From Squalus acanthias (lineage: Eukaryota), in assembly GCA_030390025.1 (NCBI GenBank), contig CM059431.1:123196001-123260000 (forward strand): a stretch of 64,000 nt of DNA, written 5' to 3'. Below, piece after piece: positions 11,627-43,020 of the stretch. The notes beneath the pieces were generated by a model, which ran no database searches, had not been told where the DNA came from, and saw only the letters and a list, made by a program, of their open reading frames with translations. Within the stretch, counting starts at the first letter, position 1. Each line of letters starts with the position of its first letter. A program made the position numbers and the translations under genes.

Positions 11627-14484
11627 GACAGCCAGAACTGTGCAGAATTATGAAGACAGAATAGCTCCTGCACTTCCTAAAAAGTAGATTAAAGACATTT
11701 TAACGTATTGCAATTGCAGCCAAAGCAACCAAAACCTGCCCGACAAGCAACTTAGCAGCCTAAAATGACGAAACAGAGACTTAACTTAATGGAGGTGAGG
11801 GCCCCTTTAAATAGTGCTTGTGGATACTGCTCCCCAATTGTGCAAGGACCTAAATCAGTTCAAGGACCCTCATTATTATAGTTTAATTGGATCTGTGCTT
11901 AATTTCGGCAAGTGCTTGTTACGCCTAAGGGGCACTGACGTCACCTGACCGCATAGTGGTTTCCCCACTTAGGCAACAGTTCAAATTCACAGTCAGAGCT
12001 CGATGATGTCATTGGACCCTGTTCTGCATATTTAAAGAAGGACCTTGCCGGCTTCAGGCAACTGCCCTTTTCGACTCCACAGAAAAACAGGTTAAAATTG
12101 AAAACAGTGGGACCCTTGTGAGATGTCAGTGAGTAAGTCACCCAGGTAGGCAGGATTAAAATCAACCCTTAAATAGTTACTGTTATGAATCACATTTCCA
12201 AAGTGTGGCTTTAATTTTTACAGGTAACTAGGTAACAACAGGGCAGTTATGAATGGAACATCCCATTAAAGTGTTACTCTCTGAATATTTGACATAATTT
12301 CCAAAGGGTTAATATATTATCAATAGAAATAATTTCTTGAATCCTTTGATTAGTTATGACACTAAATCATATTTTGTTCACTGTTAAGTTAATAGGTGAG
12401 ATATTAAGATGATACTAGCAACGCACAGAATAAAATTCATGCCTCATTAATGGAATCTAAAGTAAAATGTGACAGTTCTGATTAATTTGTAACTTAGTCG
12501 ATGAAGTTGTCATTAATCTACTCTGTTAATTCAGAGGGTTACCTAGCTGTATATTTTTACATGAATACACCAAAGGATTTTGCTGTTGGGAGTTGATTTT
12601 TGATGCAGTATGAGTTCCGGCATATTACCAAGGAAAACATAATTTTATTCTTTAAAATTTAGGGAGATGATTATAATACACTTCCTCTGAATGTGCAAAT
12701 GGTCTCACTCCAGTTGTGTTCTAACTCTTCTGCCTGGCAACACTGACAGTCCCCACTGTGGAGCGACAACCTTTGTGACAGCAGAAGGATCGCAAGGGGA
12801 GATTTTAAGCTCATTTGCATACGCTTGGGCATGACATTCAAATCAGGTGCAAAATTGAAATCTGGTTTGGGCACAAAACGCAGGAGTGAAATAATCTTAA
12901 TTGAATAGCCTTCTGATTTGAATTTTGTATCCAAACCTGATTTTTATCATGTGCCTAAGCACCTGAAAACAAGCTTAAATAATCTCCTGCTGTGAGATGC
13001 ATATATTTTGACTGCTGACAGCAAGCAAGCCTTCCCTTATTGAGAGAAGAGCAATCAACTCAGACTGGGATGTATTGTATGCTCATCATTAACGGTGGAA
13101 GAATGATTGCTCCTTTAGCTATTCCTAAGCAGCCACATATGCTCTGAAGTTTGGAGGACTTAGGATGGTTATAAAGATGGAGGAACTCTTGCTAAGCACC
13201 TTATTCTGGTCAATAAACCTTGATAGTCTGAACAACTTTGATAAAGGTAGCATTTTTGGTAATAATTTAGAGGTGTGGTAACTACTAGTGAGCAAGCACT
13301 TAACTTTGCTCTTCACCGAGATAAACTGACATTCCCAGATGGTTTGGTAAGTTTTGCAAGTGAGTGACTGAATTATATAGAACAGGAAGATCCCAGTTTT
13401 GCTCCCTTTGGCTGGACTTTCCTCTGTGATCCCACCTGATGTCAGGCAGGATAGAGGCAGAAAATAAGGCAAAATTGGGCTACGAGTCCTATCAGCGCCT
13501 CCCTGCATGACTGCAATTTATTTTCCTCCCCCACTACTGGGACCACCACAGGCCGTCCCTTCCCCACCTGTCACATGTAAATGCCAGCAGGGAGGCAGGG
13601 CCTGGAGTCTCAGTTGATTTCCCTGCTGTCTACCCCTGTTACTGCTTGTCCCTGGGACCTCCAAGAGAAGTAGTCCCTAAGATGGTGGTAGGAAAGCCTC
13701 GAAATGCCAGGATGGAAGGAGTTGGCTTTGCAATAGCCTCCTCTCCCTCCAGTTTGGTTCTCCGCACTAAGCCTTTTAGGCTGTGGTCTAAAAGAAATGT
13801 TGCCGTACTCTTCAGGGCTCTTTGATTCTCTTTAAATCAGCGGTCCCACTGCAGCACCCCAGGAATTTTCCAGGGTCAACTGTTATCCAGTTGGCGTTGG
13901 ATGGCGGGGGGTCACCAGGAATCCATCCTGCATAACAAATGACCCCAGCTGCAGGAAAAAAAAATTCGGATCATGGCAGTGTCAGGACAGCAGGGAAATG
14001 TCCCATCATGTCACGAAGAGGAGCCCCTGGTCTCTGCTGAATTGGTTGATCTCAGATAGTGATTGCTTCAAGGCTACTACAATCAGCCTCAGCTCCCAGG
14101 GTACGGAGAGGAAAATCAGGGTTTGTGCTCCTGTTTGATACCAAGCACCCCTTGATAAAGTTGTACATGCTGCATGGGGACAGGATCTAGTTCAGCTGCT
14201 GGACCACGACCTGCAACGCTGCACCAGGGAACGTGGGTGCCCGCTCTGTACCACTTGCAGCCACTTCTTCCCTTGCAAAGTTTCATTGCTGTCTGAAACC
14301 AGAGTGCACCTCCCTGTAAGAGCTGCTGGTTGCCTTTCAATGTCATTAGTGATGCCCAATTTCTCGACCCCTTCCCTCCTACCCAAACTGGTGTGCAGCT
14401 AATAAGCAGTGTGGGTAGCAGTGACTGCATGCCTGACACTTTATAATGAGCTGGCTGCATGAATTTAATACAGTCCCTGCACAC

Positions 14485-17277
14485 TCGTGAACAGGCGTGT
14501 GCCTCGAATCCTGCGTGCCCATGTGAACAGGCATGTGTAGCATGCGCCTCGACTCCTGCGTGCCCATGTGAACAGGCGTGTGTAGCATGCGCCTCGACTC
14601 CTGCGTGCCCATGTGAACAGGCGTGTGTAGCACGTGCCTCGACTCCTGCGTGCCCATGTGAACAGGCGTGTGCAGCGCGCACCTCGACTCTTGCGTGCCC
14701 ATGTGAACAGGCGTGTGCGGCGAGCGCCTCGACTCTTGCGTGCCCATGTGAACAGGCGTGTGCAGTGCGTGCTTCGACTCCTGCGTGCCCATGTGAACAG
14801 GCGTGTGCAGCGAGCGCTTCGACTCCTGCGTGCACATGTGAACAGGCGTGTGCAGCGCGTGCCTCGACTCCTGCGTGCCCATGTTAACAGGTGTGTGCAG
14901 CTCACGCCTCGACTCCTGCGTGCCCATGTGAAGAGGCATGTGCAGCACGCGCCTTGGCTCCTGCGTGCCCATGTGAACAGGCGTGTGCAGCGCGCGCCTC
15001 AACTCCTGCATGCCCATTTGAACAGGCGTGTGCAGCGCGCGCTTCGACTCCTGCCTGCCCATGTGAACAGGCATGTGCAGCGAGCGCCTCGACTCTTGCG
15101 TGCCCATGTGAACAGGCGTGTGCGGCGAGCGCCTCGACTCTTGCGTGCCCATGTGAACAGGCGTGTGCAGCGCGTGCTTCGACTCCTGCGTGCCCATGTG
15201 AACAGGCATGTGCAGCAAGCGCCTCCACTCCTGCGTGCCCATGTGAACAGGCGTGTGCAGCACTCGCTTTGACTCCTGCGTGCCCATGTGAACAGGCGTG
15301 TGCAGCACGCACCTCGACTCCTGCGTTACCATGTGAACAGGCGTATGCAGCGCGCACCTCCACTCCTGCATGCCCATGTGAACAGGCGTGTGCAGCGCGC
15401 ACCTCGACTCCTGCATGCCCATGTGAACAGGCATGTGCAGCACTCGCTTCGACTCCTTCGTGCCCATGTGAACAGGCGTGTGCAGCACGCGCTTCGACTC
15501 CTGCGTGTCCATGTGAACAGGCGTGTGCAGCGCGCGCTTCGACTCCTGCGTGCCCATGTGAACAGGCGTGTGCAGCGCGCGCTTCGACTCCTGCGTGCCC
15601 ATGTGAACAGGCGTGTGCAGCGCGCGCTTCGACTCCTGCGTGCCCATGTGAACAGGCGTGTGCAGCGCGCGCTTCGACTCCTGCGTGCCCATGTGAACAG
15701 GCGTGTGCAGCGCGCGCTTCGACTCCTGCGTGCCCATGTGAACAGGCGTGTGCAGCGCGCGCTTCGACTCCTGCGTGCCCATGTGAACAGGCGTGTGCAG
15801 CGCGCGCTTCGACTCCTGCGTGCCCATGTGAACAGGCGTGTGCAGCGCGCGCTTCGACTCCTGCGTGCCCATGTGAACAGGCGTGTGCAGCGCGCGCTTC
15901 GACTCCTGCGTGCCCATGTGAACAGGCGTGTGCAGCGCGCGCTTCGACTCCTGCGTGCCCATGTGAACAGGCGTGTGCAGCGCGCGCTTCGACTCCTGCG
16001 TGCCCATGTGAACAGGCGTGTGCAGCGCGCGCTTCGACTCCTGCGTGCCCATGTGAACAGGCGTGTGCAGCGCGCGCTTCGACTCCTGCGTGCCCATGTG
16101 AACAGGCGTGTGCAGCGCGCGCTTCGACTCCTGCGTGCCCATGTGAACAGGCGTGTGCAGCGCGCGCTTCGACTCCTGCGTGCCCATGTGAACAGGCGTG
16201 TGCAGCGCGCGCTTCGACTCCTGCGTGCCCATGTGAACAGGCGTGTGCAGCGCGCGCTTCGACTCCTGCGTGCCCATGTGAACAGGCGTGTGCAGCGCGC
16301 GCTTCGACTCCTGCGTGCCCATGTGAACAGGCGTGTGCAGCGCGCGCTTCGACTCCTGCGTGCCCATGTGAACAGGCGTGTGCAGCGCGCGCTTCGACTC
16401 CTGCGTGCCCATGTGAACAGGCGTGTGCAGCGCGCGCTTCGACTCCTGCGTGCCCATGTGAACAGGCGTGTGCAGCGCGCGCTTCGACTCCTGCGTGCCC
16501 ATGTGAACAGGCGTGTGCAGCGCGCGCTTCGACTCCTGCGTGCCCATGTGAACAGGCGTGTGCAGCGCGCGCTTCGACTCCTGCGTGCCCATGTGAACAG
16601 GCGTGTGCAGCGCGCGCTTCGACTCCTGCGTGCCCATGTGAACAGGCGTGTGCAGCGCGCGCTTCGACTCCTGCGTGCCCATGTGAACAGGCGTGTGCAG
16701 CGCGCGCTTCGACTCCTGCGTGCCCATGTGAACAGGCGTGTGCAGCGCGCGCTTCGACTCCTGCGTGCCCATGTGAACAGGCGTGTGCAGCGCGCGCTTC
16801 GACTCCTGCGTGCCCATGTGAACAGGCGTGTGCAGCGCGCGCTTCGACTCCTGCGTGCCCATGTGAACAGGCGTGTGCAGCGCGCGCTTCGACTCCTGCG
16901 TGCCCATGTGAACAGGCGTGTGCAGCGCGCGCTTCGACTCCTGCGTGCCCATGTGAACAGGCGTGTGCAGCGCGCGCTTCGACTCCTGCGTGCCCATGTG
17001 AACAGGCGTGTGCAGCGCGCGCTTCGACTCCTGCGTGCCCATGTGAACAGGCGTGTGCAGCGCGCGCTTCGACTCCTGCGTGCCCATGTGAACAGGCGTG
17101 TGCAGCGCGCGCTTCGACTCCTGCGTGCTCATGTGAACAGGCGTGTGCAGCACGCGCTTCGACTCCTGCGTGCCCATGTGAACAGGCGTGTGCAGCGCGC
17201 GCTTCGACTCCTGCGTGCCCATGTGAACAGGCGTGTGCAGCACGCGCTTCGACTCCTGCGTGCCCATGTGAACAGGT
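14485..17277. repeat. 45-bp GC/CpG-rich minisatellite, ~62 copies
   Basis: Unit gactcctgcgtgcccatgtgaacaggcgtgtgcagcgcgcgcttc; essentially identical copies ~15540-17120, more diverged copies on the left. Confidence 0.97.
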
Positions 17278-19074
17278 GCGATCGAATTCTCGGTCAATGT
17301 CTGTGCATTAAGTAAATAGCTGGCTTTACGTCTCAGCCCAGGTGCTGAAATACAGCTTTGGTATCAATAGCTCTTTTCTGACACAGTTAAAATAAAATAA
17401 TGGTAGAGAATCACCGTAATGATCTTTACCTTTAGACTCATCAGAAGAAGATAGACTTTGGGTGGCCACTAAAAGTTGAGGAAGTTTGCTAGCTGCTATT
17501 TATAAGGGCAAAATTGGAGCTTCAATCAGCAACACTCACTGTCGTGCAGCCAATCCCCTAGTCTTAGCTCTTTGCATACACAAGGCTAAAATGACAGCGC
17601 ACCCACATACTCTGTCTCCTCCCTGCTGACGCAACAGTTTCACACTTTCACACACTGTTGAAGCATGATTAAAGCCTGTTAACTTTTTTCTGCCTTGTAC
17701 AAGACTTCCTTTTCATTTGGTGATGCTGGTAATTTGTACAAAGAAACCGAACCCACAGAACCTTTGCATTCCTAGGGATGTGTTTGTTCTATGTTCAGGC
17801 AAGTCACTCCTAGTTCCAGGAAGGGATGCACAAAGACACATCAAAGAGCAAATTAAAAATGTTCCTTCTGTTGAATTGACAAGAATGAACAGAAAGGACT
17901 GTATGCTAATAGTACAGATATGCAGCATTTTGCTTTACCAGCTTTTTGACAGGGGTTACTGAAAGGTTCATAGCATTTGCTATTCCCAATGTGTAGAAAA
18001 GTTTATTGTATGTAGTAAACACTGGCAATGGCATTTCATTATCAATCTGTTATCATTTTAATTTACAATGCAAGATTTTGAAGTAAGGAGTAAAGTTCAA
18101 AATCTAAGTGCTGCAAGATTGATGGAAACAACAGCAATTGTGACATTGGAGTAGAGTGTGTTGATGAGCTGTCTCAAGTCCTGTAAATTGTTTAGTTAGA
18201 GCTTGGGAAACATGGAGAAAATGAGCCCATGCTGGAGCAGTTTGTTTTAGCTTTTACTTAGAAATAAATTCTGCAATCCTCCCAAATAAAGTTCCTTATT
18301 TTCAATGAAGCTTCATGATTCCAATAGTTCATTATTTGAAAATCCCTCTGCAAATTAATGCTAATTTATGAATGGTAGGCATTTCTTAAATGATTTATTT
18401 ATTGGGTGCACACGCTGCTAATCTGTTACTGGAAAGCACAACATCTGCAGAAGCACGTCTAACCAATGCATTTCATTTTATTTTTTAATCCTCTGCACTT
18501 GCAGATTCAGCCTGAAAACGTGCCAATAGCATTTCTCAGTCTCAATACTACATTGTCATTCTGGTCATTACCGTGAAGATGCTTCGACCAACTATTGTAT
18601 ACAAATCCTGCCTTGGAATAACAAGAAGGTTCCTATTTGTGACTTATTAGAGTAGGCTGAGCCTCACATAATTGTTTCTGCTCTCATTTGCTTTGGTGAT
18701 AAGTAGGAACAGAGAGCAATCCTGGCAGGGTGATGATATCCTCAAGGTGTCTATTGATGAATAGCACACTGATAGCCAATAAATCATGGACTTCAAGGTA
18801 CCTTTCAGCCAAAGAGGGGGGGGGGGGGGGTCATTCATTAACTTGATTCTATCTTTTTTTTAATTTAACTTGAACAGTCTCACACAGTGACTGCAAGTCT
18901 CCGCTGGATCGCTCAGCAATCAGAGGAGTACAGCAACAATAATACAAACTATTCCACACCCATGTAGACTACCGACATTAGAACTTCAGATATAGTGGAA
19001 GGATACAGACACATGGAACTATGTGGTCTGCATATCACTTGCCGAAAATAACATCTTAGTTTTATTAGCAACAA

Positions 19075-30452: not shown

Positions 30453-30791
30453 GCTCGGGAGGTTGTGGGGCTGGAGGAGATTACAGAGATAGGGAGCGGC
30501 GAGGCTATGGAGGGATTTGAAAACAAGAATGAGAATGTTGAAATCGAGGTGTTGCTTAACCGGGAGCCAATGTAGGTCAGCAAGCACAGGGGTGATGGGC
30601 AAACGGGACTTGGTGCGAGTTAGGATACGGGCAGCCGAGTTTTGGATGACCTCAAGTTTACATAGGGCAGAACGTGGGAGGCCAGCCAGGAATGCATTGA
30701 AATAATCAAGTCTAGACGCAACAAAGGCATAGATGAGGGTTTCAGCAGCAGATGAGCTGAAGCAAGGTCAGAGAAGGGCGATGTTACAGAG
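30453..30791 (-). mobile_element. L2 fragment, left half (split by the ERV)
   Basis: L2 ORF2 sequence; joins with 39976 onward as gatgttacAGAGgtggaaatagg once the ERV is removed. Confidence 0.85.
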
Positions 30792-32426
30792 TGTAGAATT
30801 CGCAATTATCGCGATTTCATTTTTAATAAGGAGAAAACACAAAGTTTCGTTCAAAACAGCTTTTATTTCAGCGGAATGCTGTCAGGTTTAAATTGGACAC
30901 AAGCAGCCTGTAAAATGGCCGCCGCACCTCGTGACAGAACATTCTAGACTTTTCGGCAGGCAGACAAGATGGCGTTCCAATAAACATTCTTGCAAGATCG
31001 ATAACGATTCAGCACAGTGAAGACAATACACAGGACATTATGGGTTTACAGTATAAACATCGATACTGGAATCGGTCTCCCAGGTACAAAGGAAAGCCAT
31101 CAAGGGCCCATCCAAAGGACATTAGTATGTAAACTCCCAACGGCTCTACGATGAGAGAGCCGTTAGCAGGTAGTTATACAGGACACTTGGAAGCCCCCAA
31201 ACCCCTCCAGGGGGAACACCGACCGATTTAACAATGGGAGAAATATTAACAGGTACTCAAACATTCAGGAGTAGCCCCGAAACCCATTAAGGACAGAGAT
31301 CACCCATACAGGACTTTTTGGGCGCCAAACCTTAAACAAAAGAATGGACATTGTAGTTGGGCGGGAAACGGAAGAACTGTGCACTATAATTGCAGGCCCA
31401 AACCGTCCATTCGCTCTCTGGCCTCTTGCTCTTTTGCTCTTGACTCTTGTCGCTTGCTGCTGTTATCATCGTGGCTGCTCCTGTGTTTTATCCGGTCGAT
31501 TCGTAACCTCGTGGCTGCTCCTGGGTAAAAGACTGTTGCAAAGACCTATGTTGGTAGCTGGCAGCGGAACCGAAGGCCCGGGATGAGATGAGATGAGATG
31601 AGATGAGATGAGAGGAGAAGAGAAGAAGACCTTATCCATCGCCACGGTCAGTAAATCCCGACCGCGCCTGTAGGTCGATCAGCCAAGTCTTCTCGACAGG
31701 AAGTTTTCTTCTTTAACAAGACATATTGCATCAATGATAACTGGACTGTGCAAACACATCGTATCAGTGATATTGACAACGGTGCTCCACGATTAAACTT
31801 TGAAGCCCACCAACAGAGGTCTTCACTACAGCGGACGGTCCAGCCGACTGACCGAGCAGCAGAAGCAGTAAACAAGTGGGACCAGGAGATCTCCTGACCA
31901 ACACGTGGGTGCTGCGGTGAAAAACATCCGATCAGCTATTCGGGATTTCTCCGAGTTATTACGAGTGGTGAGCATGAGTCTCGGGATCCTACGAAGCTAG
32001 TTTTAGGATAGTTATTGATAGGGGAGGGTTTAAAGTTTAAGGATATTTGTAATGTGTGCCCTATTTACGTTGTGCTGGTCGTTCCTCGTTTCCCTAAGAG
32101 TGATTATAACTGTTTGTAAGATTGTACTGTCATTAATCTGTGCATATGACATGTATTTCATAATTTTAAGTATCATGCAATAAAGATTTTCCATTTCGTA
32201 CCGTTCAAACCAAGTCTACATGAGTTTTATCTCCATTACTGCTCTCGCATCTAAGTCCAGTGTCTAGAACCGTAAGGGAGAGTGATTCGAACCACTCACA
32301 GGGGTGTCTAGTGTTCCCAGACTGGCTGGAGACCAGGCCTAGACCCGCACTGACATACAGGCTGCACAGAGCCGCGTGAACCTCACAGGCCACGAGACAC
32401 GCAGGGTCAGGAGAGTATCCCTTACA
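30792..32426 (+). repeat. 5' LTR (1635 bp)
   Basis: tgtagaattcgc...gtatcccttaca; direct repeat of 38346-39975; contains (gatga)6. Confidence 0.97.
31358..31390 (+). promoter_or_regulatory. Putative LTR promoter (GC box plus TATA-like)
   Basis: gggcggga at ~31358, then tataat at 31385-31390 followed by a pyrimidine-rich stretch; YY1-like aaaatggccgc and caagatggcg motifs upstream at ~30911 and ~30965. Confidence 0.45.
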
Positions 32427-32430
32427 GAAA

Positions 32431-34242
32431 ATGGCGACCGCGGCAGGACACTGGCAGCGAGAGGGTAGTGTGTTAGATTTTGGAATGACTGTACGAAATG
32501 TGATGCAGGAAAAGATAGCGGATTACGTATTTGGAAAGGTTAATCTAACGAAAAAGTGGATAAGCGAATTGTTAGCGGATAAGAGCCCACTAGAGGCAGC
32601 TGAAAGGTGGACGGATAGTAAGGAGCATAAAAAAGCAGTTGAGAAAGCAGTCTGGCTTATGTGCTACAAAAGGCAGGTTCAGATTTCAAACCAGACCAAT
32701 ACAGCGCTAACCGCTCGAATCAAGCATCTAGAGGAGGAAATGGAGGAGAAGGTTTCTGGAGGGGAGGCGCTCATTAAGAGTTTAAATGAGTTACGCCAGG
32801 AAAGCCAGGAAGTCTCCAGTTACCTTAAAACAAGGGTAGAGTATCTCGAGTGCCAGATCACTGAAGCAAAATTAAACGAGAGTAGGATGAAGGAAAGATG
32901 TAACCGTCAAGCTGCCCAGATAAGAACTCAAGAAGAGAGCTTAATGGGGGTTAGGTCGGCGTATAAGTTGGCCCTTGAGGATAAGTTTCAGGGAGCCGAC
33001 CATAGCGCCTGCGAAAAAGAGATAGAGAGCCTCAAAAAGGCCGTGAATAATGCGAACGGCATGGTGTGCCTTATTAATCCGTCGGCACGCCAGCCGCTAG
33101 TAAATGAGAGATTTAGAAATTCCCCACCAAGTAAAGCAGAAGAAGTAGTAGCCAGTGCGCCCTCCGCGCCACCCAGCTATTCAGAAACCTGGGTTAGGGA
33201 GGAAGCAACGGAAGAAGCAAAAGAGCCCGTTGAAAAAGAGGTAGAAAAGGGATCGTTGTATCCAGTAACGGGGATTAAAAGGGGCCCAAGCAGAAACGGT
33301 GGGGAAGAACCGGGGGATCTCCTCGGACAGCTGGTGTTGCCTCACAGTTCACATCAGCTGAGGGCCATGATAAACCACGTAAGGAAGCTGACCGAGATAG
33401 ACGACCCTTCCGTACATTTTAGGGAAGTTGAGCAAGCCGCAGCCATCAACGGCTGCGATGATGGGGAGACAGCAAAAATGCTGCTGTTCTCGTTAGATAG
33501 CTCGGTCCTTCAGTGTCTCTCAGGCGATAGCAAGAGGGGTAATAAAAGTTATGAGGAATTGAAAAATGAGGTCCTAGAAGTAGTGGGAGCGAACGACGGA
33601 GGTCCGTTTGCTAGAGTGGGACAGACAGTGCAGATGGAGGGAGAACCCCCGAAGGTTTTTGCCGACAGGCTGTGGCCAGTATATGAGCGCAGCTGTCTAG
33701 GTGCGCCCGAGCGCGAAGATGTGGAAGGCGCCGCTTTAATTCATTGGCTTAGGTGCATAATAGCCAACAGTTTACCAGCCGTTAGAGAGCAGGCAAAAGC
33801 CTGGTTCGATCCCAATGACCTCAACCTTACGGAAGAGTCGGTCTTGAATCGACTCACGTTAGGTTACCGTAACATAAGGGGTATGGCAACACGTCCCTTT
33901 AAGGGAAGAGTACATGAGGTACGACCCGCAGCCCCGACTCAAAGAGAGTGGCATCAGGAGGGTAATCGCGCCCCACAGGCAAGTAATGCCTGTTACGGGT
34001 GTGGGAAGACAGGGCACTGGCGCAAGCACTGCAGGAACCCTTGGAAGGATTCCAAGGATAAAAATCCCGCGGTCCGAGCCCAGGCGCCTGTCCCGGCTAA
34101 GGAAGCAAAGGCACCCACCTCTCCCGAAGACCTCGAAGCAGTGTTAGGAGTCATGCGCAAGATGGTTTTGAATGCGCGTGGACAGGTGGCGGTCGCAACC
34201 GGCCCCGTAGGTGCCGCAGGACCGTCTAATAGTGCCCCATGA
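32431..34242 (+). CDS. gag: Gag polyprotein (603 aa)
   Basis: N-terminal coiled coil; PSAPPSY late-domain motif (33160-33180); MHR-like QMEGEPPKVFADRL (33631-33672); CCHC zinc knuckle CYGCGKTGHWRKHC (33991-34032); located directly after the LTR/PBS. Confidence 0.92.
   Translation: MATAAGHWQREGSVLDFGMTVRNVMQEKIADYVFGKVNLTKKWISELLADKSPLEAAERWTDSKEHKKAVEKAVWLMCYKRQVQISNQTNTALTARIKHLEEEMEEKVSGGEALIKSLNELRQESQEVSSYLKTRVEYLECQITEAKLNESRMKERCNRQAAQIRTQEESLMGVRSAYKLALEDKFQGADHSACEKEIESLKKAVNNANGMVCLINPSARQPLVNERFRNSPPSKAEEVVASAPSAPPSYSETWVREEATEEAKEPVEKEVEKGSLYPVTGIKRGPSRNGGEEPGDLLGQLVLPHSSHQLRAMINHVRKLTEIDDPSVHFREVEQAAAINGCDDGETAKMLLFSLDSSVLQCLSGDSKRGNKSYEELKNEVLEVVGANDGGPFARVGQTVQMEGEPPKVFADRLWPVYERSCLGAPEREDVEGAALIHWLRCIIANSLPAVREQAKAWFDPNDLNLTEESVLNRLTLGYRNIRGMATRPFKGRVHEVRPAAPTQREWHQEGNRAPQASNACYGCGKTGHWRKHCRNPWKDSKDKNPAVRAQAPVPAKEAKAPTSPEDLEAVLGVMRKMVLNARGQVAVATGPVGAAGPSNSAP
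32432..32449 (+). promoter_or_regulatory. Primer-binding site, tRNA-Ser-like
   Basis: tggcgaccgcggcaggac 5 nt after the LTR end; TGG complements tRNA CCA; the TGGCG...GGCAGGA pattern resembles the complement of vertebrate tRNA-Ser 3' ends (imperfect, recalled from memory). Confidence 0.6.
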
Positions 34243-35286
34243 CTAGAGTCCACGCAGCCTGCCTACCTGTGTCCTTTTAAAAGACACGCACAGGAGGGGG
34301 TCTGCGGTGAGGAGGCCAGGTTAAAAGAGCAGGCCTTGCGGGAGGAGAACGCCCGCTTAATAGGGAAAATAGATGGGCTGGAAGGGCAGCTTAGAGAGCA
34401 GACCCTGCGGGAGGAGAATGCCCGAGAAATGGGAAAGTTAGACGTGCTCAGGCTAGAAGGGCAGCTTAGAGAGATAAAAGCAGCCTACAGGGTAGCCAGG
34501 AGCAGGGAGTATGAGGATTTAAAACCACAAGGCACACAGGCAGGCGTAGCAGCTTGCATCAGGGGAAGGGACATCCCGGACGATCATGCAGCGTTTTTCT
34601 GGAGTTGGGGGTTAGATGACGAGGACCCCAGGGTACCCTGGTCAGATGAGGATAGTGCAGATGAGCATAGTGATGATGACGGGTGGTTTCAGAGGAACGG
34701 TCTGGAAGGATTGGGGCCGCTAGGTAGAGATCCATACGGGGTGGACACACAAGCTGCAGGTCCCGACAGCAGGAGGAAGGAGCTAGAGGAGGCCGGGCCA
34801 GCCGCTATGTGGTTCCCAGAGGTGTGGCCGCCCGCTTTGAACGTCCAGTCCTCAGGGGAGGCAGAGTTCGCGAGTGAAGGGCCGCCTGCTGGGCCGAGCA
34901 GGGCGGGGCCCCGAACTACCAGCCCCGAGGTTAGGGAGGCGGAGTCAGCGGAGGCGGGGCTGGCGCCTGTGATGGAACCCCAGGTCATCCCGTTGAAGGT
35001 CTCGGGACCCGGTCCGTCCGTCACGGAGCCCCCGCCCATAGCAATTCCCCGTAGGTCAAGCAGAGTCCCCCAGCCCAGGAAGATGTGGTCAGGTCCACAG
35101 GCTGCCCCAGGGCGTAAGTTTCAGGTTAAGATAACCCGGGTAGAGACAGGCCACATCGAAGCAGTAACAGGCTGCGGCAGATCAGAGGCAAGGGTCAGCG
35201 CAGCAACAGGCTGCGGCAGACCAGAGGGAAGGGTCAGTGCCCTCCCACCGTCGGGAAGAGCTCGCAGCAGCCTTCTCAGGATTTAA
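34243..35286 (+). CDS. In-frame readthrough extension of Gag occupying the pol position; unknown non-enzymatic protein (coiled coil, acidic, Pro-rich)
   Basis: Open from the codon after the gag TGA (tga cta gag tcc...) to TAA at 35284-35286 in the gag frame; the ORF-track start at 34336 is TTG; internal repeats LREENAR..GK.D...LEGQLRE x2 and TGCGR.E.RVSA x2. Confidence 0.65.
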   Translation, partial: LESTQPAYLCPFKRHAQEGVCGEEARLKEQALREENARLIGKIDGLEGQLREQTLREENAREMGKLDVLRLEGQLREIKAAYRVARSREYEDLKPQGTQAGVAACIRGRDIPDDHAAFFWSWGLDDEDPRVPWSDEDSADEHSDDDGWFQRNGLEGLGPLGRDPYGVDTQAAGPDSRRKELEEAGPAAMWFPEVWPPALNVQSSGEAEFASEGPPAGPSRAGPRTTSPEVREAESAEAGLAPVMEPQVIPLKVSGPGPSVTEPPPIAIPRRSSRVPQPRKMWSGPQAAPGRKFQVKITRVETGHIEAVTGCGRSEARVSAATGCGRPEGRVSALPPSGRARSSLLRI

Positions 35287-35570
35287 AGGGGCCGCCCTGA
35301 GAACGGGCGGCATTGTAAAGTTATTAGTTTAAGGTTTTAAGTTTTAGTTTAAAGTTTTAAGTGGTTTTAATAAGGTTAAGTTTGTAGTGTTTGTAACAGA
35401 AAACGATAAAATGATGGGAGTTTTAAGGCTAGGTTTAGAGGAAGTCTATTTAGCAAACGTTGAAGTTTACGTGAGGCAAGGTCAGGGGACCCGCTCACCC
35501 TTCACAAAAGCCAGAGACTTTTTGCGAGGCTGGCTACCTCATTCTATCTGATCACAGGAACCAAGGAAGG

Positions 35571-37922
35571 ATGGAACGACTCATAGTATTGCTCGCGGCA
35601 ATCGGATGTGGATTGGCCTATCGGGGCCTCACCAAGGATGTCGTGGTGTTTGGATGTTCCGGGGACACGGCCCCCATCGCGGTGGATGGGACCGGGAGAC
35701 GGAAGGCAGAAGGGACCAGCACCTATTTCCACAAGGGAAGGTGGCCAGGATGGCTGGGAACGAACTCAACGGAGTATTCCAGCACATCGGGGTTCGCCTA
35801 CAAAGAGACTTCTTTAATGTGCCCCAAAGTACGGATCATCGCACCCAGGATCAGCGTCACCGTCGGCAAACGGATTTGTTTGACCTGCAGTGGGAATGTC
35901 CCATTGAGCCGATGGTGGTGGCTGCGAAAGCTGAGCAAAACTATGAGGAACTCTTCGGTTGAGTGGGAGCGACTGGGTAATAATACCCATCGGACAATTA
36001 CGGGGACAAACGGACAAGTGAAAGTCTGTTGGGACAAATGGTGGGAACCGGATGAGGGGATTTATGTTTGTATGTGGGGGTCAAAGTACGTTTGCCCCAA
36101 AGGCATCTCCATATTCTTTATTAACCAGTGGCAGGATAACGGACAGGGGATGAGGTGGGATGCGAGCACCAGGGGGTGCGGAGCCCCATACTCTCCGATC
36201 CCAGTAAATGCCACTGAGCTCATTACGCGCCCACGCAAAGCCCCGCCCACGATTCCGGTAGTTCTAACTGAGGAAGAAGGGTGCCCTAAAACTAGTAAGG
36301 GACCCGGGAACGGTTTGGTACTGGTCCCCACAGACCAGATACTATTTCAGGGGGTACATTACGCGGTGGCCTCAGTGATTTTAAATCTCACTGAGGTACG
36401 GTTACCAGAGTGGTGCCCCAAAAAGACGGAACAGTTGTACCAGGTCCTGTTGACCAAGATGTTCAGGCAATTTTACGAGTTTGATTTTGCAGAAATTGAT
36501 AAGACAAGTTTGTACACCGCACCGCAGGAAGTTTTGGATCAAGTTGGGAGGCAAAGAAGGGGTTTGGTGAACGATGCGTTCACTGCTTTTAACACAGGGA
36601 CATCTGTGGTCAACGCTCTAGACAGTGTGGAGCTGCAGACCCAGATTAATGGTTTAAAAACACAGTTAAAGGATATTCTCACAGATGAGAATAAAGTGGT
36701 AGGGTCGGGTCTGCACGAGGACCAAGCCATGACACTACACTTAAAGGAAATCATAGCAGAGCTGGAGAAACATGCGCGTACGGTAAATGCCCTGATTAGG
36801 GAAGATCGGAATGCATCCGATCAGGCTGCGCAGAACGAGGTGTGCGTGCTTTACGGGGCGTGGTTACTGGGCGAGGGCCGCAGTAATTTGGAGGATTTAA
36901 AACAAGGTTTGGTCCCGTCCTGGATAAGTAACAAACACCTGCGGGCGCTCCACCCTTTTCAGAACGCATTAAGTCCGTGCCAGCTCAGGCTAGCTTCAGA
37001 AGCTTACCCAGTCCCCGTGGACTGCGGACGTTCAAACCATACTATTATGGGAATAGTATTACGCATGCCGGTTTTGGGCAACACAGCAAAGCCCGCCCCG
37101 GTGTATCGGGTAGAGAACATTGGTGTCATTCAGGGGGGAGCCCACATTCGTTATGCAGCGGTTCCACCTTACGTCATCCGCTGGGAGCAAACGATGACAG
37201 GTACAGATCTCTCTGGTTGTCGTGGCAGGGGAGCACACATAATACTGTGCCCCCAGCACTTGAATGCCTTTTTAACACCACAGTGCGGGTTCAGAACGGC
37301 TGGCGCCAAGTCCATGAATTGCACCATGGAGGCAATGGCACAAGATCATGTGCCTCCGCAGGTAGCATACATCGGGGGTGGAACATACTGTGTTACCACT
37401 GCAGCGCAACACTACCAGCATGGAAACCGTAGCCGGTGTCCGGTGAGTGACAGCAGTTTCTGTTTTAAACCCAGGGCTGAAGTTCAAGTAGCACAACAGC
37501 GAATTATCCCAATCCCTGAACCATCCACTGTTCATCTCACAGTAAAAGAGAATTTTACCGACTTGCAGCGATTTGTCGCACATTTTGGGTACCTCATTCC
37601 CCCTCTCCCTGAGCATTTAACCAAACTTCTGAAAGCCGTCGCGGTGTCACAAAAGCATTTTTATACATTAGAACAGAAAACCGTCGAGATAGGTACAGAC
37701 ATTTTGGACATAGTGGTTCCACCGTGGTGGAATCTGTTCACGAATATTGAAGTGCCCTCATGGGTCAGAATAGCCTCCCACATTTTAGTCGTCTGTCAAG
37801 TGTTTATTGTAGTATACCTTTTGTTCATACATTGTAAAAGAGACAAGCGCCTCACCAAGCATGAGAACACGGGAGAGTGGCGAGAACGTTACGTGCGCGT
37901 GCACGATGAGAGCGCAGTGTAA
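35571..37922 (+). CDS. env: Envelope glycoprotein (783 aa): signal peptide, Ig-like domain, F-like class I fusion core, TM anchor
   Basis: Signal peptide MERLIVLLAAIGCGLA; Ig motif C106..W..DEGIYVC167; furin site RQRR (36549-36560), then fusion peptide GLVNDAFTAFNTGTSVVNAL and heptad repeat; Cys-rich region; TM IASHILVVCQVFIVVYLLFIHC (37770-37835); short basic tail; several N-glycosylation sequons. Confidence 0.92.
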   Translation: MERLIVLLAAIGCGLAYRGLTKDVVVFGCSGDTAPIAVDGTGRRKAEGTSTYFHKGRWPGWLGTNSTEYSSTSGFAYKETSLMCPKVRIIAPRISVTVGKRICLTCSGNVPLSRWWWLRKLSKTMRNSSVEWERLGNNTHRTITGTNGQVKVCWDKWWEPDEGIYVCMWGSKYVCPKGISIFFINQWQDNGQGMRWDASTRGCGAPYSPIPVNATELITRPRKAPPTIPVVLTEEEGCPKTSKGPGNGLVLVPTDQILFQGVHYAVASVILNLTEVRLPEWCPKKTEQLYQVLLTKMFRQFYEFDFAEIDKTSLYTAPQEVLDQVGRQRRGLVNDAFTAFNTGTSVVNALDSVELQTQINGLKTQLKDILTDENKVVGSGLHEDQAMTLHLKEIIAELEKHARTVNALIREDRNASDQAAQNEVCVLYGAWLLGEGRSNLEDLKQGLVPSWISNKHLRALHPFQNALSPCQLRLASEAYPVPVDCGRSNHTIMGIVLRMPVLGNTAKPAPVYRVENIGVIQGGAHIRYAAVPPYVIRWEQTMTGTDLSGCRGRGAHIILCPQHLNAFLTPQCGFRTAGAKSMNCTMEAMAQDHVPPQVAYIGGGTYCVTTAAQHYQHGNRSRCPVSDSSFCFKPRAEVQVAQQRIIPIPEPSTVHLTVKENFTDLQRFVAHFGYLIPPLPEHLTKLLKAVAVSQKHFYTLEQKTVEIGTDILDIVVPPWWNLFTNIEVPSWVRIASHILVVCQVFIVVYLLFIHCKRDKRLTKHENTGEWRERYVRVHDESAV

Positions 37923-38333
37923 TGGGAAAATGGCGTCACTCCCGCTCGCCACGTGCGCCGCGGAAGTTTGTACTCATTGTAAATACGTTGGAAACTCGAT
38001 ATGTTTAAGAGTCGGGATTTGTTTATTTTGGTGATGGTGTTGATTGTTTGGTTTTTGGGTTTTGTTTTTCCTTCCCTTGAATAAAAGACAAATATACAGG
38101 TGATGCGTGAGGTATCGGCCTGGTTACGCCGGGAAGGAAAACAAGTGGTGTAAGTTTAAGGGCAAATGATGCCTACGGTGATATAAAATGTGATTTTCTT
38201 GGGAAATAAGGACGACACAGAGACCTAGTGAAGTTAAAATTTTATGGGATTAATTTACTGGATTCGGAGTGAAATCGAGATAAGATTGCTCACCACTGAG
38301 ATTTTTGATACGATAAGCGGAGTTATTCGCATC

Positions 38334-38345
38334 AACAGGAGGGAC
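38334..38345 (+). promoter_or_regulatory. Polypurine tract
   Basis: Purine-rich stretch (caggagggg-type, ending ...ggagggac) immediately before the 3' LTR start tgtag at 38346. Confidence 0.7.
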
Positions 38346-39975
38346 TGTAGAATTCGCAATTATCGCGATTTCATTTTTAATAAGGAGAAAACACAAAGTT
38401 TCGTTCAAAACAGCTTTTATTTCAGCGGAATGCTGTCAGGTTTAAATTGGACACAAGCAGCCTGTAAAATGGCCGCCGCACCTCGTGACAGAACATTCTA
38501 GACTTTTCGGCAGGCAGACAAGATGGCGTTCCAATAAACATTCTTGCAAGATCGATAACGATTCAGCACAGTGAAGACAATACACAGGACATTATGGGTT
38601 TACAGTATAAACATCGATACTGGAATCGGTCTCCCAGGTACAAAGGAAAGCCATCAAGGGCCCATCCAAAGGACATTAGTATGTAAACTCCCAACGGCTC
38701 TACGATGAGAGAGCCGTTAGCAGGTAGTTATACAGGACACTTGGAAGCCCCCAAACCCCTCCAGGGGGAACACCGACCGATTTAACAATGGGAGAAATAT
38801 TAACAGGTACTCAAACATTCAGGAGTAGCCCCGAAACCCATTAAGGACAGAGATCACCCATACAGGACTTTTTGGGCGCCAAACCTTAAACAAAAGAATG
38901 GACATTGTAGTTGGGCGGGAAACGGAAGAACTGTGCACTATAATTGCAGGCCCAAACCGTCCATTCGCTCTCTGGCCTCTTGCTCTTTTGCTCTTGACTC
39001 TTGTCGCTTGCTGCTGTTATCATCGTGGCTGCTCCTGTGTTTTATCCGGTCGATTCGTAACCTCGTGGCTGCTCCTGGGTAAAAGACTGTTGCAAAGACC
39101 TATGTTGGTAGCTGGCAGCGGAACCGAAGGCCCGGGATGAGATGAGATGAGATGAGATGAGAGGAGAAGAGAAGAAGACCTTATCCATCGCCACGGTCAG
39201 TAAATCCCGACCGCGCCTGTAGGTCGATCAGCCAAGTCTTCTCGACAGGAAGTTTTCTTCTTTAACAAGACATATTGCATCAATGATAACTGGACTGTGC
39301 AAACACATCGTATCAGTGATATTGACAACGGTGCTCCACGATTAAACTTTGAAGCCCACCAACAGAGGTCTTCACTACAGCGGACGGTCCAGCCGACTGA
39401 CCGAGCAGCAGAAGCAGTAAACAAGTGGGACCAGGAGATCTCCTGACCAACACGTGGGTGCTGCGGTGAAAAACATCCGATCAGCTATTCGGGATTTCTC
39501 CGAGTTATTACGAGTGGTGAGCATGAGTCTCGGGATCCTACGAAGCTAGTTTTAGGATAGTTATTGATAGGGGAGGGTTTAAAGTTTAAGGATATTTGTA
39601 ATGTGTGCCCTATTTACGTTGTGCTGGTCGTTCCTCGTTTCCCTAAGAGTGATTATAACTGTTTGTAAGATTGTACTGTCATTAATCTGTGCATATGACA
39701 TGTATTTCATAATTTTAAGTATCATGCAATAAAGATTTTCCATTTCGTACCGTTCAAACCAAGTCTACATGAGTTTTATCTCCATTACTGCTCTCGCATC
39801 TAAGTCCAGTGTCTAGAACCGTAAGGGAGAGTGATTCGAACCACTCACAGGGGTGTCTAGTGTTCCCAGACTGGCTGGAGACCAGGCCTAGACCCGCACT
39901 GACATACAGGCTGCACAGAGCCGCGTGAACCTCACAGGCCACGAGACACGCAGGGTCAGGAGAGTATCCCTTACA
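38346..39975 (+). repeat. 3' LTR (1630 bp)
   Basis: Same sequence as the 5' LTR by eye except (gatga)5; AATAAA at 39728-39733; followed by the TSD agag. Confidence 0.97.
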
Positions 39976-40365
39976 AGAGGTGGAAATAGGCGGTCTTAGT
40001 TATGCTGCGGATATGTGGTCGGAAGCTCATTTCAGGGTCAAATATGACACCAAGATTGCGAGCAGTGTGATACAGCCTCAGACAGATGTTAGGGAGAGGA
40101 ATGGAGTCAGTGGCTAGGGAACGGTGTTTGTGGCGGGGACCGAAAAAAATGGCTTTGTTCTTCCCAATATTTAATTGGAGAAAATTTCTGCTCATCCAGA
40201 ACTGGTCTGACAATTTAGAGACCGTGGAGGGGTTAAGAGAAGTGGTGGTGAGGTAGAGCTGGGTGTCGTCAGCGTACATGTGGAAACTGACGCTGTGTTT
40301 TCGGAAGATGTCGTCAAGGGGCAGTAGGTAGATGAAAAATAGGAGGGGCCAAGTGGATGCACAAG
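39976..40365 (-). mobile_element. L2 fragment, right half (RT region)
   Basis: [11 protein letters not shown]...[11 protein letters not shown]...NFLQLNIGK...[13 protein letters not shown], a typical L2 RT; continuous with 30453-30791. Confidence 0.9.
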
Positions 40366-42433
40366 GGTAAGCACGTGGGTGTTTTAATAACTGTGTGAAG
40401 TTTCCGTAATGTGATGTCACAGATAAAACATTTTATTTTCACCACTTTCCGGTCATGCCATTTGTGTATGCACTTTGGAAGTGGCTTAGTGAGTTGCAGT
40501 GAATGGAGAGACATAACGTTACCTCCAGCAATGGTGGTCAGTGTGAAAGGAATGGCCTGGTCATTATAGGGATGCTTTATGGTGTTGCTGTAGGGTGTTG
40601 GCAGCCTGGCACAGCATATGGCAGCCATATGGGTGTAATGCCTGAAGTTAAGTAAATCTGGCCATGATGAGGCTATCCCTGACCTCCCGGGCAGCAACTT
40701 GTTCGGGTGTTGGTGGCATCTGGACTGCAGGTCCCTCCTGCTCCTCCTCCTCCTTGTCTTCCAACTGATGCTCCTCCTCCTCCTCCTCCTGCTCTGAAGA
40801 TGCTGTGTGCTCAGTGCCTTGCTCCTCGTGCAGCGCTAATCCTTGCTGCTGTGCTATGTTGTGCAGGGCGCAGCAGACCACGATGATTCTGGAGACTCTG
40901 GCTGGTGCATTTTGATGGGCTGCTCCAGATCTGTCAAGGCATCTGAAGTGCATTTTCAGCATGCCTATTGTCTGCTGTATGACGCATCTGGTGGAAATAT
41001 GGCTTTCATTCTATCTCTCCTAGGCTTCATGACATGGCCTCCTCAAGGGTGTCATGAGCCACATCTTCAGTGAATAGTCCTTGTTTCCAAGCAGCCAGCT
41101 GGAAAGTCTGTTTGGAGGAGTGAAGAGCTGGACTAGCGCAGGACGAAAGAGTCATGGCAGCTGCCAGGGAATTTGGTGCAAATATGCATGATGATCTTCC
41201 TACGGTTGCAGACCAGCTGCACATTGAGGGAGTGGAAGCCCTTGTTGTTGACAAAGACTCCTGGGTTATGATGGGGTGCCCTGATGGCCACATGTGTGCA
41301 GTCAATAACACTCTCCACCCGTGGGAAGCCAGCCAGAGTGGCAAAGCCAAGTGCCCGCTCAATAACACTAGTTTCATCAGTGGCAAAGTTGATATAATTG
41401 GCTGACTTGTGAAACATGGCATCAGTGACCTGTGTGATGCATCTGTGGGCAGCCGACTGCGAGATGCTGCCAATGTCTGCTGCAGATTCCTGGAAGGAGC
41501 CTAAGGCGAAGAAGTTGAGCGCGCTGGTGACTTTGACAGCCACTGGTAAGGTGTGTCCACCCACTCCTCTGGGCTGCAGGTCTTGCTTCAGCAATCTGTA
41601 AATGTCTGAGACGACCTGTCATGATAGCCTGAGCCTCCTTTGGCACTGCTGCTCAGTCATATTGTGGAAGCTTATCCTCTGCCTGTATACCCTGTGTTGG
41701 GGGTATTGCCTCCTGAGCGGCGCAGCCCTGTGCTGATGCCCTCTGTCCTGTGCAGCATCAGGTTAGTGAGGAGAATGTCGGTGGTGATCTTGGTGCTGCT
41801 GCTGGTGTGCCTGGTACTGCTGGTGTTGGGGCCCTTCGAGCTCTGATTCTGAGCACCAAGGTGAGACAGTATAAATGGCACCCATGCTGATGTAATAGAT
41901 GGCAGGTCAAGTAGAGCTGACAGAAGCAATCTGTCAATGGTGTGATAGGCGGTACCAATGAGGTGACAGTGGATCCCGACTTTGCTGAAAAGACTTGCAA
42001 CCTCTAGAAATCTAAATCTGTGCTGACAATACACTCAGCAACAGCATCTGCCTTAGGAAAGTAATTAGGTGTCAAGTGGGAGTATTTATTGTGCTTTCCA
42101 TGCTGTGCACTAATGAGCTGGATCAATGGCCACTGAACCTCTGCCTCAGGTTCACAGACGTGGTTCCCGAGGTGCGTGATTCCCGTAGTCATCCAGGGAA
42201 ATTTGAAAGTTAGGGTTGAAAAAATGATTCAGGGCCTGGGAAGTACCAAATAATCATCTGATTATCTCGACCTCCTTTGCTGTTCGGGTTACTGTCACGT
42301 TGGCAAACGTGCCTGAGGGAAAGGCGCGTGGAGGCAGGATGACAGCGGGTTCCGGATCCGCTCCAACATATTTCAAATTTCCCTCCCAACCCGCCTCCAT
42401 TCCTGCCCGCACGGATGTCAGAAAATTCCAGAC
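40366..42433 (-). mobile_element. Harbinger transposon arm with HARBI1-like transposase pseudogene (~41885-40648)
   Basis: [20 protein letters not shown]...[10 protein letters not shown]...[16 protein letters not shown]...[14 protein letters not shown]...[21 protein letters not shown]...CCALHNIA; TIR-like gaaaattccagac at ~42433. Confidence 0.87.
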
Positions 42434-42434
42434 A

Positions 42435-43020
42435 TGGGTTTTAAGGAGGGTCTTAACCGAGGAGAAGGAGTTAGAGAGGCAGAGGTGTTTAGGGATGGAA
42501 TTGCAGAGAGTGAGGCCTTGACGGCTGAAGGCACAAGTGCAATGGTGGGACAAAGGAAGGGGGATGTACAAGGAGCCAGAGTCAGAGGAGTGGAGAGTTA
42601 TGGGAGGATAGTAGTGCTGTAGGAGATTAAAGATAGGGAGAGGCACAGTTATGGAGGGATTTAAACACAAGGATGAGAATTTTAAATTAGAGGCATTGGG
42701 GGACCAGGAGCCAAGAAAGGTTAGCAACGGCAGGCTAATTTGTGAGTAGGACTTGGTGTAGGATAGGATAAAGGCAGCACAGTTTTGGATAAGCTCAAGC
42801 CTACAGACAGTGGGGCTCAGGAGGCTAGCCAGAAGAACATTGGAGTAGTCGAGTCTGGAGGTGACAAAGGCATTGATGAGGGTTTCAGTGCCAGATGGGC
42901 AGAGGTGGATGATGTTATGGAGGTGGAAGTAGGTAGTCTTTATGATGTAGAGGATTACAGGATTGAAAGCTAAATTCATGGTCGAATAGGATTGCAGTTA
43001 AGTTTAGACTGAGACACGTG
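42435..43020 (-). mobile_element. L2 LINE fragment
   Basis: AFVTSRLDYSNVLLASL...LELIQNCAA, an L2 ORF2 C-terminal motif. Confidence 0.85.

Follow-up and report, generated by a model that had tools for sequence, protein, structure and literature searches.

A likely lokiretrovirus in the genome of Squalus acanthias with an F-like envelope protein and a probable N-terminal Ig-like domain

Can a fusion protein of the paramyxovirus F type function without a partner? F relies on a separate attachment protein to find the receptor, whereas a retroviral Env must both find the receptor and fuse the membranes, so that a retroviral Env built on the F scaffold would inform on how F works alone. The question is raised by a 64,000-nucleotide (nt) stretch of the genome of Squalus acanthias (GenBank assembly GCA_030390025.1, contig CM059431.1, positions 123,196,001 to 123,260,000; hereafter, the window), in which a provirus bounded by long terminal repeats (LTRs) encompasses an env open reading frame (ORF) of 783 amino acids (aa). 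This ORF is probably a functional env of an endogenous retrovirus (ERV) of the lokiretrovirus type that has undergone recent, massive amplification. As judged from structural models, its product is a class I fusion glycoprotein with the scaffold of paramyxovirus and pneumovirus F proteins and an extra N-terminal region that contains a probable immunoglobulin (Ig)-like domain. An earlier note on this DNA, made from the sequence alone, had proposed an F-like Env tipped with an Ig domain, and all the Env motifs that it quoted were found in place in the ORF (Table 1).

The F-like core of Env and the region that precedes it

The Env core (aa 225-745) was modelled with AlphaFold2 (AF2) from an alignment of 41 sequences, with a mean predicted local distance difference test (pLDDT) score of 73.2 and values above 85 in the beta-rich domains. 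Comparison of this model with the PDB using Foldseek yielded 237 matches at E <= 0.001, the best being the F protein of human parainfluenza virus 3 (hPIV3; 1ztm_B, E 3.1e-11), followed by those of respiratory syncytial virus (RSV), parainfluenza virus 5 (PIV5), Langya virus, Newcastle disease virus (NDV) and Nipah virus. In VIA-align, the F proteins of hPIV3, Langya virus and Nipah virus scored Z 12.0-12.6 (1ztm_B, Z 12.6, root-mean-square deviation (rmsd) 19.0, 392 aligned; 8tvg_A, Z 12.3, rmsd 6.8, 332 aligned; 8dmj_A, Z 12.0, rmsd 5.2, 290 aligned). The modelled core has the three-domain fold of F (hPIV3 1ztm, Langya 8tve, RSV 3rki), from F2 through domains I-III, with both heptad repeats, A (HRA) and B (HRB); as in F, a furin-type activation site, RQRR, stands directly before the predicted fusion peptide. 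The alignments with F begin at model residue 20-21, that is, at aa ~245 of Env, on the mature N-terminus of F, so that the first ~220 mature residues of this retroviral protein are an addition to the F scaffold.

The subunit downstream of RQRR comprises 453 aa, in agreement with the ~450 aa of the earlier note, which had also remarked on the missing CX6CC motif of the gamma type. Indeed, inspection of all Cys positions revealed no two adjacent Cys residues anywhere in Env, which therefore lacks this motif and does not have the combination of CX6CC and an immunosuppressive domain that characterizes the gamma-type retroviral transmembrane subunit. In the alignment of Env homologues, the RQRR column, where cleavage is predicted, is occupied by RSKR, RKRR or SKR.

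Among the predicted structures in BFVD, the core matched mononegaviral glycoproteins (of lispi-, arli- and chuviruses), baculovirus F and paramyxovirus F, with further matches to epsilonretrovirus Env, to the S proteins of toroviruses and coronaviruses (RNA-virus spikes, far larger than this Env and with N-terminal domains of different folds) and, at rank 48, to foamy virus gp130. The models of baculovirus F (Ld130), insect errantivirus Env and the epsilonretrovirus Envs of walleye epidermal hyperplasia virus (WEHV) and walleye dermal sarcoma virus (WDSV) matched at E 1e-11 to 2e-5 (1.3e-8 for WEHV-1); the carriers of these proteins are DNA viruses and retroelements that differ in hosts and pol lineages. 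When the sequence profile of the core was compared with the PDB, the best match was foamy virus gp130 (E 0.0012, covering the Cys-rich head region), and henipavirus F followed at E 0.7-1.2; the PDB rows listed for the core by Foldseek and VIA-align do not include gp130.

The sequence identity between Env and paramyxovirus or pneumovirus F is about 9-14%, and Pfam searches speak against an F relationship. The Fusion_gly family (PF00523), which the earlier note expected to be detected, matched neither Env itself at E <= 1 nor any of 17 Env homologues at E <= 0.1, and zero families reached the Pfam threshold with the whole of Env, whereas the published lokiretrovirus Env matches PF00523 at E 2.2e-7 (PMC7947760). 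The structural part of the same prediction was borne out by the AF2 model with its matches to the F proteins of hPIV3, RSV, Langya virus, NDV and PIV5, and, on the strength of this model, the F-like fold of the Env core is confirmed.

In the region that precedes the core, there is a single instance of the pattern C-x(9-17)-W-x(35-65)-D-x-[GA]-x-Y-x-C (aa 103-167), which is found in 103 of 200,000 shuffles of the Env protein, and residues typical of Ig domains appear at canonical spacing, namely, C103/C106 in the B strand, W115-117 in the C strand and D161-E-G-I-Y-V-C167 in the F strand. In a protein language model, aa 75-185 have Ig clusters as neighbours (scores 0.88-0.90), and a homologue from Chiloscyllium is named 'Ig-like domain-containing protein' in UniRef. 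When the PDB was searched with a clean profile built from six N-terminal sequences of sharks and skates, the IgV domain of CRTAM was the best match (E 0.045, 85 residues), and Ig proteins occupied five of the nine rows; the CRTAM alignment covers the A' to F strands and superimposes the conserved Cys, Trp and DEGxYxC residues. We also modelled aa 17-245 with AF2 (10 sequences). In the only ordered part of this model, aa ~98-169, the positions of strands B, C, C', D, E and F are occupied by strands; Foldseek returned Ig domains in all 50 rows listed for it (best E 1.6e-3), and a structural search over 48,161 chains placed Ig folds in 50 of the 50 top rows (Z 6.3-7.2, rmsd 2.5-4.9, 72-89 aligned). 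The flank at aa 17-84 carries a conserved GRWPGWLGxNS motif.

The evidence for the Ig-like domain at aa ~85-176 is nevertheless weak, in that all of it falls below threshold or comes from a poor model, and the following points have to be set against the assignment. Pfam Ig_3 matches aa 88-167 of Env at E 0.089, with 13.8 bits against a cut-off of 30; among 15 family members, Ig_3 matches three (best 0.0085) and V-set one, all below the cut-off. The N-terminal model has a mean pLDDT of 37, with no residue at 70, values of 50-59 in the ordered part and values below 50 outside it, including aa 17-84 and 177-245, to which the model assigns no fold. A Foldseek search of the PDB with this model yielded zero matches at E <= 0.001, and Z values below 8, as obtained for the Ig folds, are middling by the scale of the tool. 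The low model confidence and the sub-threshold matches to Ig families would both be expected if the N-terminal region had no Ig fold, the Cys, Trp and DxGxYxC residues being a look-alike on some other beta-rich or disordered, glycosylated cap; moreover, the PDB is rich in antibodies, which small beta-sandwiches tend to match. We consider this explanation unlikely given that five independent kinds of evidence converge on one fold over the same residues, and that the alignment with CRTAM keeps the conserved positions in register from the A' to the F strand. In our assessment, aa ~85-176 probably adopt an Ig fold. Of the Ig domain in the earlier note, the signature thus stands and the fold is probable only: Ig folds top every listing, but at the pLDDT and E values given above.

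The F protein has been described as a minimal scaffold for added receptor-binding modules, which are N-terminal in coronavirus spikes and inserted in foamy virus Env (PMC11468914). Foamy virus gp130 (8rm0/8rm1), another retroviral Env in which the fusion core is F-like, has a leader peptide and a receptor-binding domain (RBD) inserted between the subunits (Sci Adv 2024, PMC11468914), whereas in the Env described here the extra module is N-terminal. This N-terminal location, together with the F-like core, is shared with the spikes of coronaviruses and toroviruses (PMC11468914), the S models of which match our core model.

Placement among retroviruses and origin of the N-terminal module

Given that most of pol is missing from the window copy (see below), the element was placed using a full-length sister copy, L013, in which gag, a 1500-aa pol and env are all open. 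In the L013 pol, the protease (PR) and reverse transcriptase (RT) are accompanied by two RNase H units, the first of which is a degenerate 'tether', and by an integrase (IN) with H2C2, core and SH3-like parts; both RNase H units are recognized by Pfam (RT_RNaseH_2 and RT_RNaseH at aa 470-602, RNase_H at aa 650-793). The closest named pol relatives come from frogs (Rhinophrynus, Pyxicephalus, Aquarana) and the coelacanth, with 39-42% identity, compared to 28-31% for canonical ERVs. In the PDB, whole pol matched Ty3 best (5.3e-72), followed by the RTs of murine leukemia virus (MLV) and xenotropic MLV-related virus (XMRV) (~2e-69) and foamy virus PR-RT (1.4e-63); the integrase is closest, among solved structures, to that of prototype foamy virus (PFV; 1.4e-33). 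A tree of RT and tether was built by a quick maximum-likelihood search with 77 rows, leaving out 10 of the 86 pol matches that had a short or partial RT (P0108, P0119, P0129, P0136, P0148, P0149, P0151, P0152, P0156 and P0157). In this tree, the present element joins the frog, coelacanth and unlabelled rows in one clade (support of 91 in the Shimodaira-Hasegawa-like approximate likelihood ratio test, SH-aLRT), which is the sister group of the canonical dual-RNase H ERVs (100), both being apart from Ty3/gypsy (100).

An Env that resembles F and a pol with dual RNase H are among the marks of lokiretroviruses (Wang & Han, Mol Biol Evol 2020/21; PMC7947760), and their published RT position is outside the canonical retroviruses, as a sister group (PMC7947760). 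The present element resembles them in having gag, pol and env between LTRs (window copy and L013 together), in its dual-RNase H pol, the RT of which falls outside the canonical retroviruses in the quick tree, and in an F-like Env that has a signal peptide and, besides the R-x-K/R-R site, a fusion peptide, coiled coil and anchor (PMC7947760), although the relationship of this Env to the F proteins of Mononegavirales is apparent in structure and not in Pfam. It differs from published lokiretroviruses in the tRNA-Arg(TCG) primer and in an LTR that ends 4 nt before the gag ATG. From these sequence comparisons, the element likely belongs to the lokiretroviruses. That the rows of the tree include no named lokiretrovirus or exogenous reference, and that the search was a quick one, count against the placement.

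Several observations would also fit a canonical retroviral group, foamy-like or epsilon-like, with an F-like Env: foamy virus gp130 is the best PDB sequence match of the Env core profile, the integrase is nearest to that of PFV, epsilonretrovirus Env models match the core, and gag and pol share one frame across a stop, as they do in gamma- and epsilonretroviruses. Furthermore, a 2020 screen recorded lokiretroviruses in 0 of 1 Rajiformes genomes, and four shark and chimaera genomes (Chiloscyllium plagiosum, C. punctatum, Rhincodon and Callorhinchus) are listed without the mark borne by Xenopus tropicalis and Latimeria (PMC7947760 supplement). Against this explanation, whole pol is nearest to Ty3, ahead of MLV/XMRV and foamy viruses; the pol clade with frogs and the coelacanth falls outside the canonical ERV clade (SH-aLRT 100); close relatives come from Xenopus tropicalis, Rana catesbeiana and Latimeria, in all of which lokiretroviruses have been reported (PMC7947760 supplement); and Env has no foamy-type leader peptide or inserted RBD. 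We regard a canonical origin as improbable and retain the assignment to lokiretroviruses, by which an element of this type is now placed in cartilaginous fishes.

An F-like lokiretrovirus Env is already known, having been published in 2020 (PMC7947760), so that the combination that the earlier note took to be undescribed is new only in part. The Env scheme in the available part of that publication names no N-terminal or Ig domain, whereas the Env described here has an N-terminal region. An Ig-like N-terminal module was not found in the lokiretrovirus literature searched, including passages of PMC7947760, PMC9040795 and 10.1101/2023.10.26.564294, nor, in the same literature, were a cartilaginous-fish lokiretrovirus host and very recent env-dependent spread; the passages searched in PMC11521997 and PMC11089739 contain no description of the present Env. 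The Ig-like module and the cartilaginous-fish host thus appear to be undescribed.

As for the origin of the module, a phmmer search with the whole of Env against 1.84 billion representatives produced 49 matches, among which those that were looked up, or are named by their source, are retroviral Env pieces or chimeric gene models holding such pieces; no host Ig protein among the 49 aligned to the N-terminal part. Near-full-length relatives were found in sharks (Mustelus, Chiloscyllium), in frogs (Pelodytes, Mantella, Xenopus) and on other contigs, and align from aa ~225. The N-terminal domain is shared with Env pieces of Rhinoraja, Pristiophorus, Rhincodon and one further contig, at 45-75% identity, and therefore long predates this insertion. 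In the frog homologues and relative P0034, the N-terminal region is ~100 aa long and shows Ig-like features (V-set E 0.045; Ig clusters 0.83-0.84); comparison of the shark/skate-type profile with the frog/other profile using hhalign gave a probability of 3.7%, by which common origin is neither shown nor excluded. In another relative, P0036, the signal peptide runs directly into the conserved start of the F core. The hhalign result and the module-less P0036 suggest that the module is exchangeable and, from the sequences compared, it looks old, with no recent host capture.

A recent capture from a host Ig-superfamily gene, along the lines of the host-like Ig domain that the earlier note imagined, could be argued from the fact that Ig domains are typical of host proteins, from the shark- and frog-type regions being without demonstrable homology and from the existence of at least one relative without the module. 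However, the search that found, among its 49 matches, zero host proteins aligned to the N-terminal part, and the domain itself in the Envs of other cartilaginous fishes, leave such a capture very unlikely.

Three Pristiophorus japonicus gene models (P0002, P0003 and P0010, annotated as Niban 1-like, ZFP2-like and cadherin-related 5-like) and one model with an F-box domain (P0038) hold Env-family pieces fused to host exons and are probably annotation chimeras. A first N-terminal profile search of the PDB was discarded, as most of what it found were zinc fingers, brought in by chimeric gene models with env pieces.

Copies, selection and a proposed mode of action

All 57 env copies scored in the genome retain the same 783-aa frame, full-length and open, and are scattered over many contigs; given 12,914 first-look env candidates, the true number of copies exceeds 57. 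In a sample of 20 loci ranked by gag, and thus picked without regard to env, env is full-length in 16 (open in 14, with one internal stop in one and a 1-nt gap in one), truncated in one, reduced to the last 228 nt in one and absent from two. The two LTRs of the window copy have 0 mismatches and differ by one 5-nt microsatellite gap. With LTRs free of substitutions and dozens of open copies, the element is very young and recently amplified.

Variants were counted in the 15 gapless copies of the gag-ranked sample with the window copy as the single reference, and the ratios are crude, without correction for a tree. Across the whole of env, 76 synonymous and 26 non-synonymous variants were found (540 and 1809 sites; crude ratio about 0.10). 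The counts were 21 synonymous and 15 non-synonymous in aa 1-235 (165 and 540 sites; 0.22), 14 and 5 in aa 236-330 (62 and 223 sites; 0.10), and 41 and 6 in aa 331-783 (313 and 1046 sites; 0.044). Among the variants present in at least two copies, 45 are synonymous and four non-synonymous, all four within aa 1-235. Env is subject to purifying selection, and the N-terminal region (aa 1-235) evolves fastest, with the highest non-synonymous share; receptor-binding parts usually evolve fastest. That the sample consists of the copies with the best gag, and that a single reference was used with no tree correction, detracts from these estimates. A first count (42 synonymous and 4 non-synonymous variants) was dropped, as its 13 loci had been selected for their env protein score, which biases the result.

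The differences between copies being mostly synonymous, the copies must have diverged under selection for a working Env. Such selection is a classical sign, known from human ERV studies, of spread by reinfection as opposed to intracellular copying. Together with the substitution-free LTRs and the dozens of open copies, these differences bear on whether a group that is represented by fossils only still circulates. Co-option of env as a syncytin-like host fusogen, for which the earlier note had put the gene forward as a candidate and with which the intact ORF and purifying selection would be compatible, is extremely unlikely, as this env is not a single conserved host locus but one of at least 57 near-identical open copies, located in a provirus with its own target-site duplication and LTRs without substitutions, and the synonymous differences among loci reflect selection during the spread of the element, not at one conserved host locus.

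If env is, as we maintain, a gene used by the virus, its product could act as follows. The env mRNA would be spliced, from a donor in the LTR leader to an acceptor 13 nt before the env ATG (Table 1); the N-terminal region with the Ig-like domain, as the surface subunit (SU)-like part, would bind the receptor; furin-type cleavage at RQRR330 would free the fusion peptide; and the F1-like part would refold into a hairpin, fusing the membranes. There is a hint from sequence that env is translated from a spliced mRNA, in that a single contig, from run X1, connects 31966 with 35557; the ends are GT..AG, and the shorter side has 25 letters. The RNA nature of this run is a guess of the tool, no run being on record as RNA, which lessens the value of the hint. 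We can only infer, and this too has to be held against the overall interpretation, that the N-terminal region is the likeliest receptor-binding part, because a retrovirus has no separate attachment protein and the Ig-like domain is the only recognizable fold of the region.

The module is present in this Env and in those of sharks, there are weaker signs of it in frogs, and at least one relative lacks it. It is conceivable, although we would put it somewhat below even chances, that lokiretrovirus Envs in general are self-sufficient F proteins with an exchangeable, often Ig-like, N-terminal receptor-binding module, the retroviral counterpart of the coronavirus spike layout, and that the present lineage is currently or was very recently infectious, spreading through repeated germ-line infection that depends on env, in a group of hosts from which no lokiretrovirus had been reported. 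An F-type protein to which nature has added an N-terminal domain would represent one route to a self-sufficient F scaffold, and this Env offers a compact system to study the coupling of receptor binding to F triggering.

Organization of the provirus and loss of pol

Table 1 Features of the provirus and of env in the window (nt positions refer to the window, aa positions to Env)
Feature	Position	Strand	Remarks
Target-site duplication AGAG, 5' copy	30788..30791	+	3' copy at 39976-39979; read directly
Provirus	30792..39975		env inside
5' LTR	30792..32426	+	TG...CA, 1635 nt; TATA-like site; AATAAA at 32179
Candidate splice donor G/GTGAGC	31967/31968	+	in 5' LTR leader
gag	32431..34242	+	603 aa; coiled-coil N-terminal part, one CCHC knuckle; TGA end, in frame with next ORF
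Primer-binding site	32432..32449	+	18/18 bases complementary to 3' end + CCA of tRNA-Arg(TCG), gene of same genome
pol remnant	34243..35286	+	first 32 nt and C-terminal tail of pol; blastn against L013
Candidate splice acceptor AG	35556..35557	+	pyrimidine-rich, cacAG/G; 13 nt before env ATG
env ORF	35571..37922	+	783 aa, zero internal stops; 815 aa stop to stop
Signal peptide (predicted)	35571..35618	+	aa 1-16; cleavage after GLA, judged by eye from sequence
N-terminal SU-like region	35619..36275	+	aa 17-235; absent from paramyxovirus F
Probable Ig-like (V/I-set-like) domain	35823..36098	+	aa 85-176; sequence and model evidence
Motif ISVTVGKRICLTC	aa 94-106		located directly
Motif WWWLRK	aa 115-120		located directly
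Motif DEGIYVC	aa 161-167		located directly
F2-like segment ending in RQRR	36276..36560	+	aa 236-330; model strands align to N-terminal strands of F
Motif GNGLVLV	aa 246-252		located directly
RQRR	36549..36560	+	aa 327-330; furin-type site
Predicted fusion peptide and long HRA helices	36561..36902	+	aa 331-444; AF2 helices aa 333-374 and 383-444 (model residues 109-150 and 159-220)
Beta-rich, Cys-rich head domains (model)	36978..37520	+	aa ~470-650; AF2 pLDDT 85-97
Motif CRGRGAHIILCP	aa 550-561		start of Cys-rich block
HRB helix (model)	37605..37706	+	aa 679-712; AF2 helix, model residues 455-488
Predicted transmembrane anchor, then 28-aa tail	37761..37835	+	aa 731-755; sequence and AF2 helix, model residues 506-520
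Polypurine tract AACAGGAGGGAC	38334..38345	+	adjoins 3' LTR
3' LTR	38346..39975	+	1630 nt

In the window copy, 249 nt (34275-34523) replace 3708 nt that encode PR, RT, RNase H and IN in L013 (blastn), and no Pfam match was found in the pol remnant. Lacking these enzymes, the window copy depends on the full-length sisters for them and can only be moved with enzymes that these provide. The same replacement, with 115 nt extra, is present in L014, a copy on another contig (L014 2032-2373), and therefore the pol-less form itself has been copied. Among the 13 copies common to the env and gag lists, the spacing between the starts of gag and env is 6.56-6.60 kb in 10 and 3.1-3.3 kb in three, including the window copy, and most sister copies appear to retain the open 1500-aa pol; the short, pol-less type makes up about 3 of 13 and 2 of 16 sampled copies. 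One copy, L031 (G000:C5:127654784-127660884), represents a third length class, with a gag-to-env distance of ~6153 nt, ~446 shorter than the common 6599.

The 249 nt that replace the enzymes encode REENAR...LEGQLRE repeats, a coiled coil similar to the one at the N-terminus of gag. In pol, the integrase is followed by an acidic, Pro-rich extension of ~250 aa with no family match (L013 5778-6540, corresponding to window 34524-35286).

Gag is open in 73 of the 73 copies scored in the genome. It starts with a long coiled coil (aa ~80-200; window 32431-33030), to which the Pfam matches are weak; an SMC-like gene has been reported in some lokiretroviruses (PMC7947760). The primer-binding site overlaps the gag ATG (32431), which lies 4 nt past the LTR. 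The tRNA-Arg(TCG) 3' end has 435 matches in the genome, mostly in tandem arrays with a period of ~1.62 kb on contig C26, at about 38.99-41.88 Mb.

On either side of the provirus lie ORFs on the minus strand that have an RT-like YADD motif and are apparently LINE-like (39971-40835). Both flanks share a 155-nt repeat (30606-30760 and 42749-42903, 74% identity), and the provirus therefore seems to have been inserted into older repeats. Elsewhere in the window, positions 14000-17400 are G+C-rich (0.57-0.61), and each of the six frames is open over 600-990 aa, as might be expected of a low-complexity region or a repeat array.

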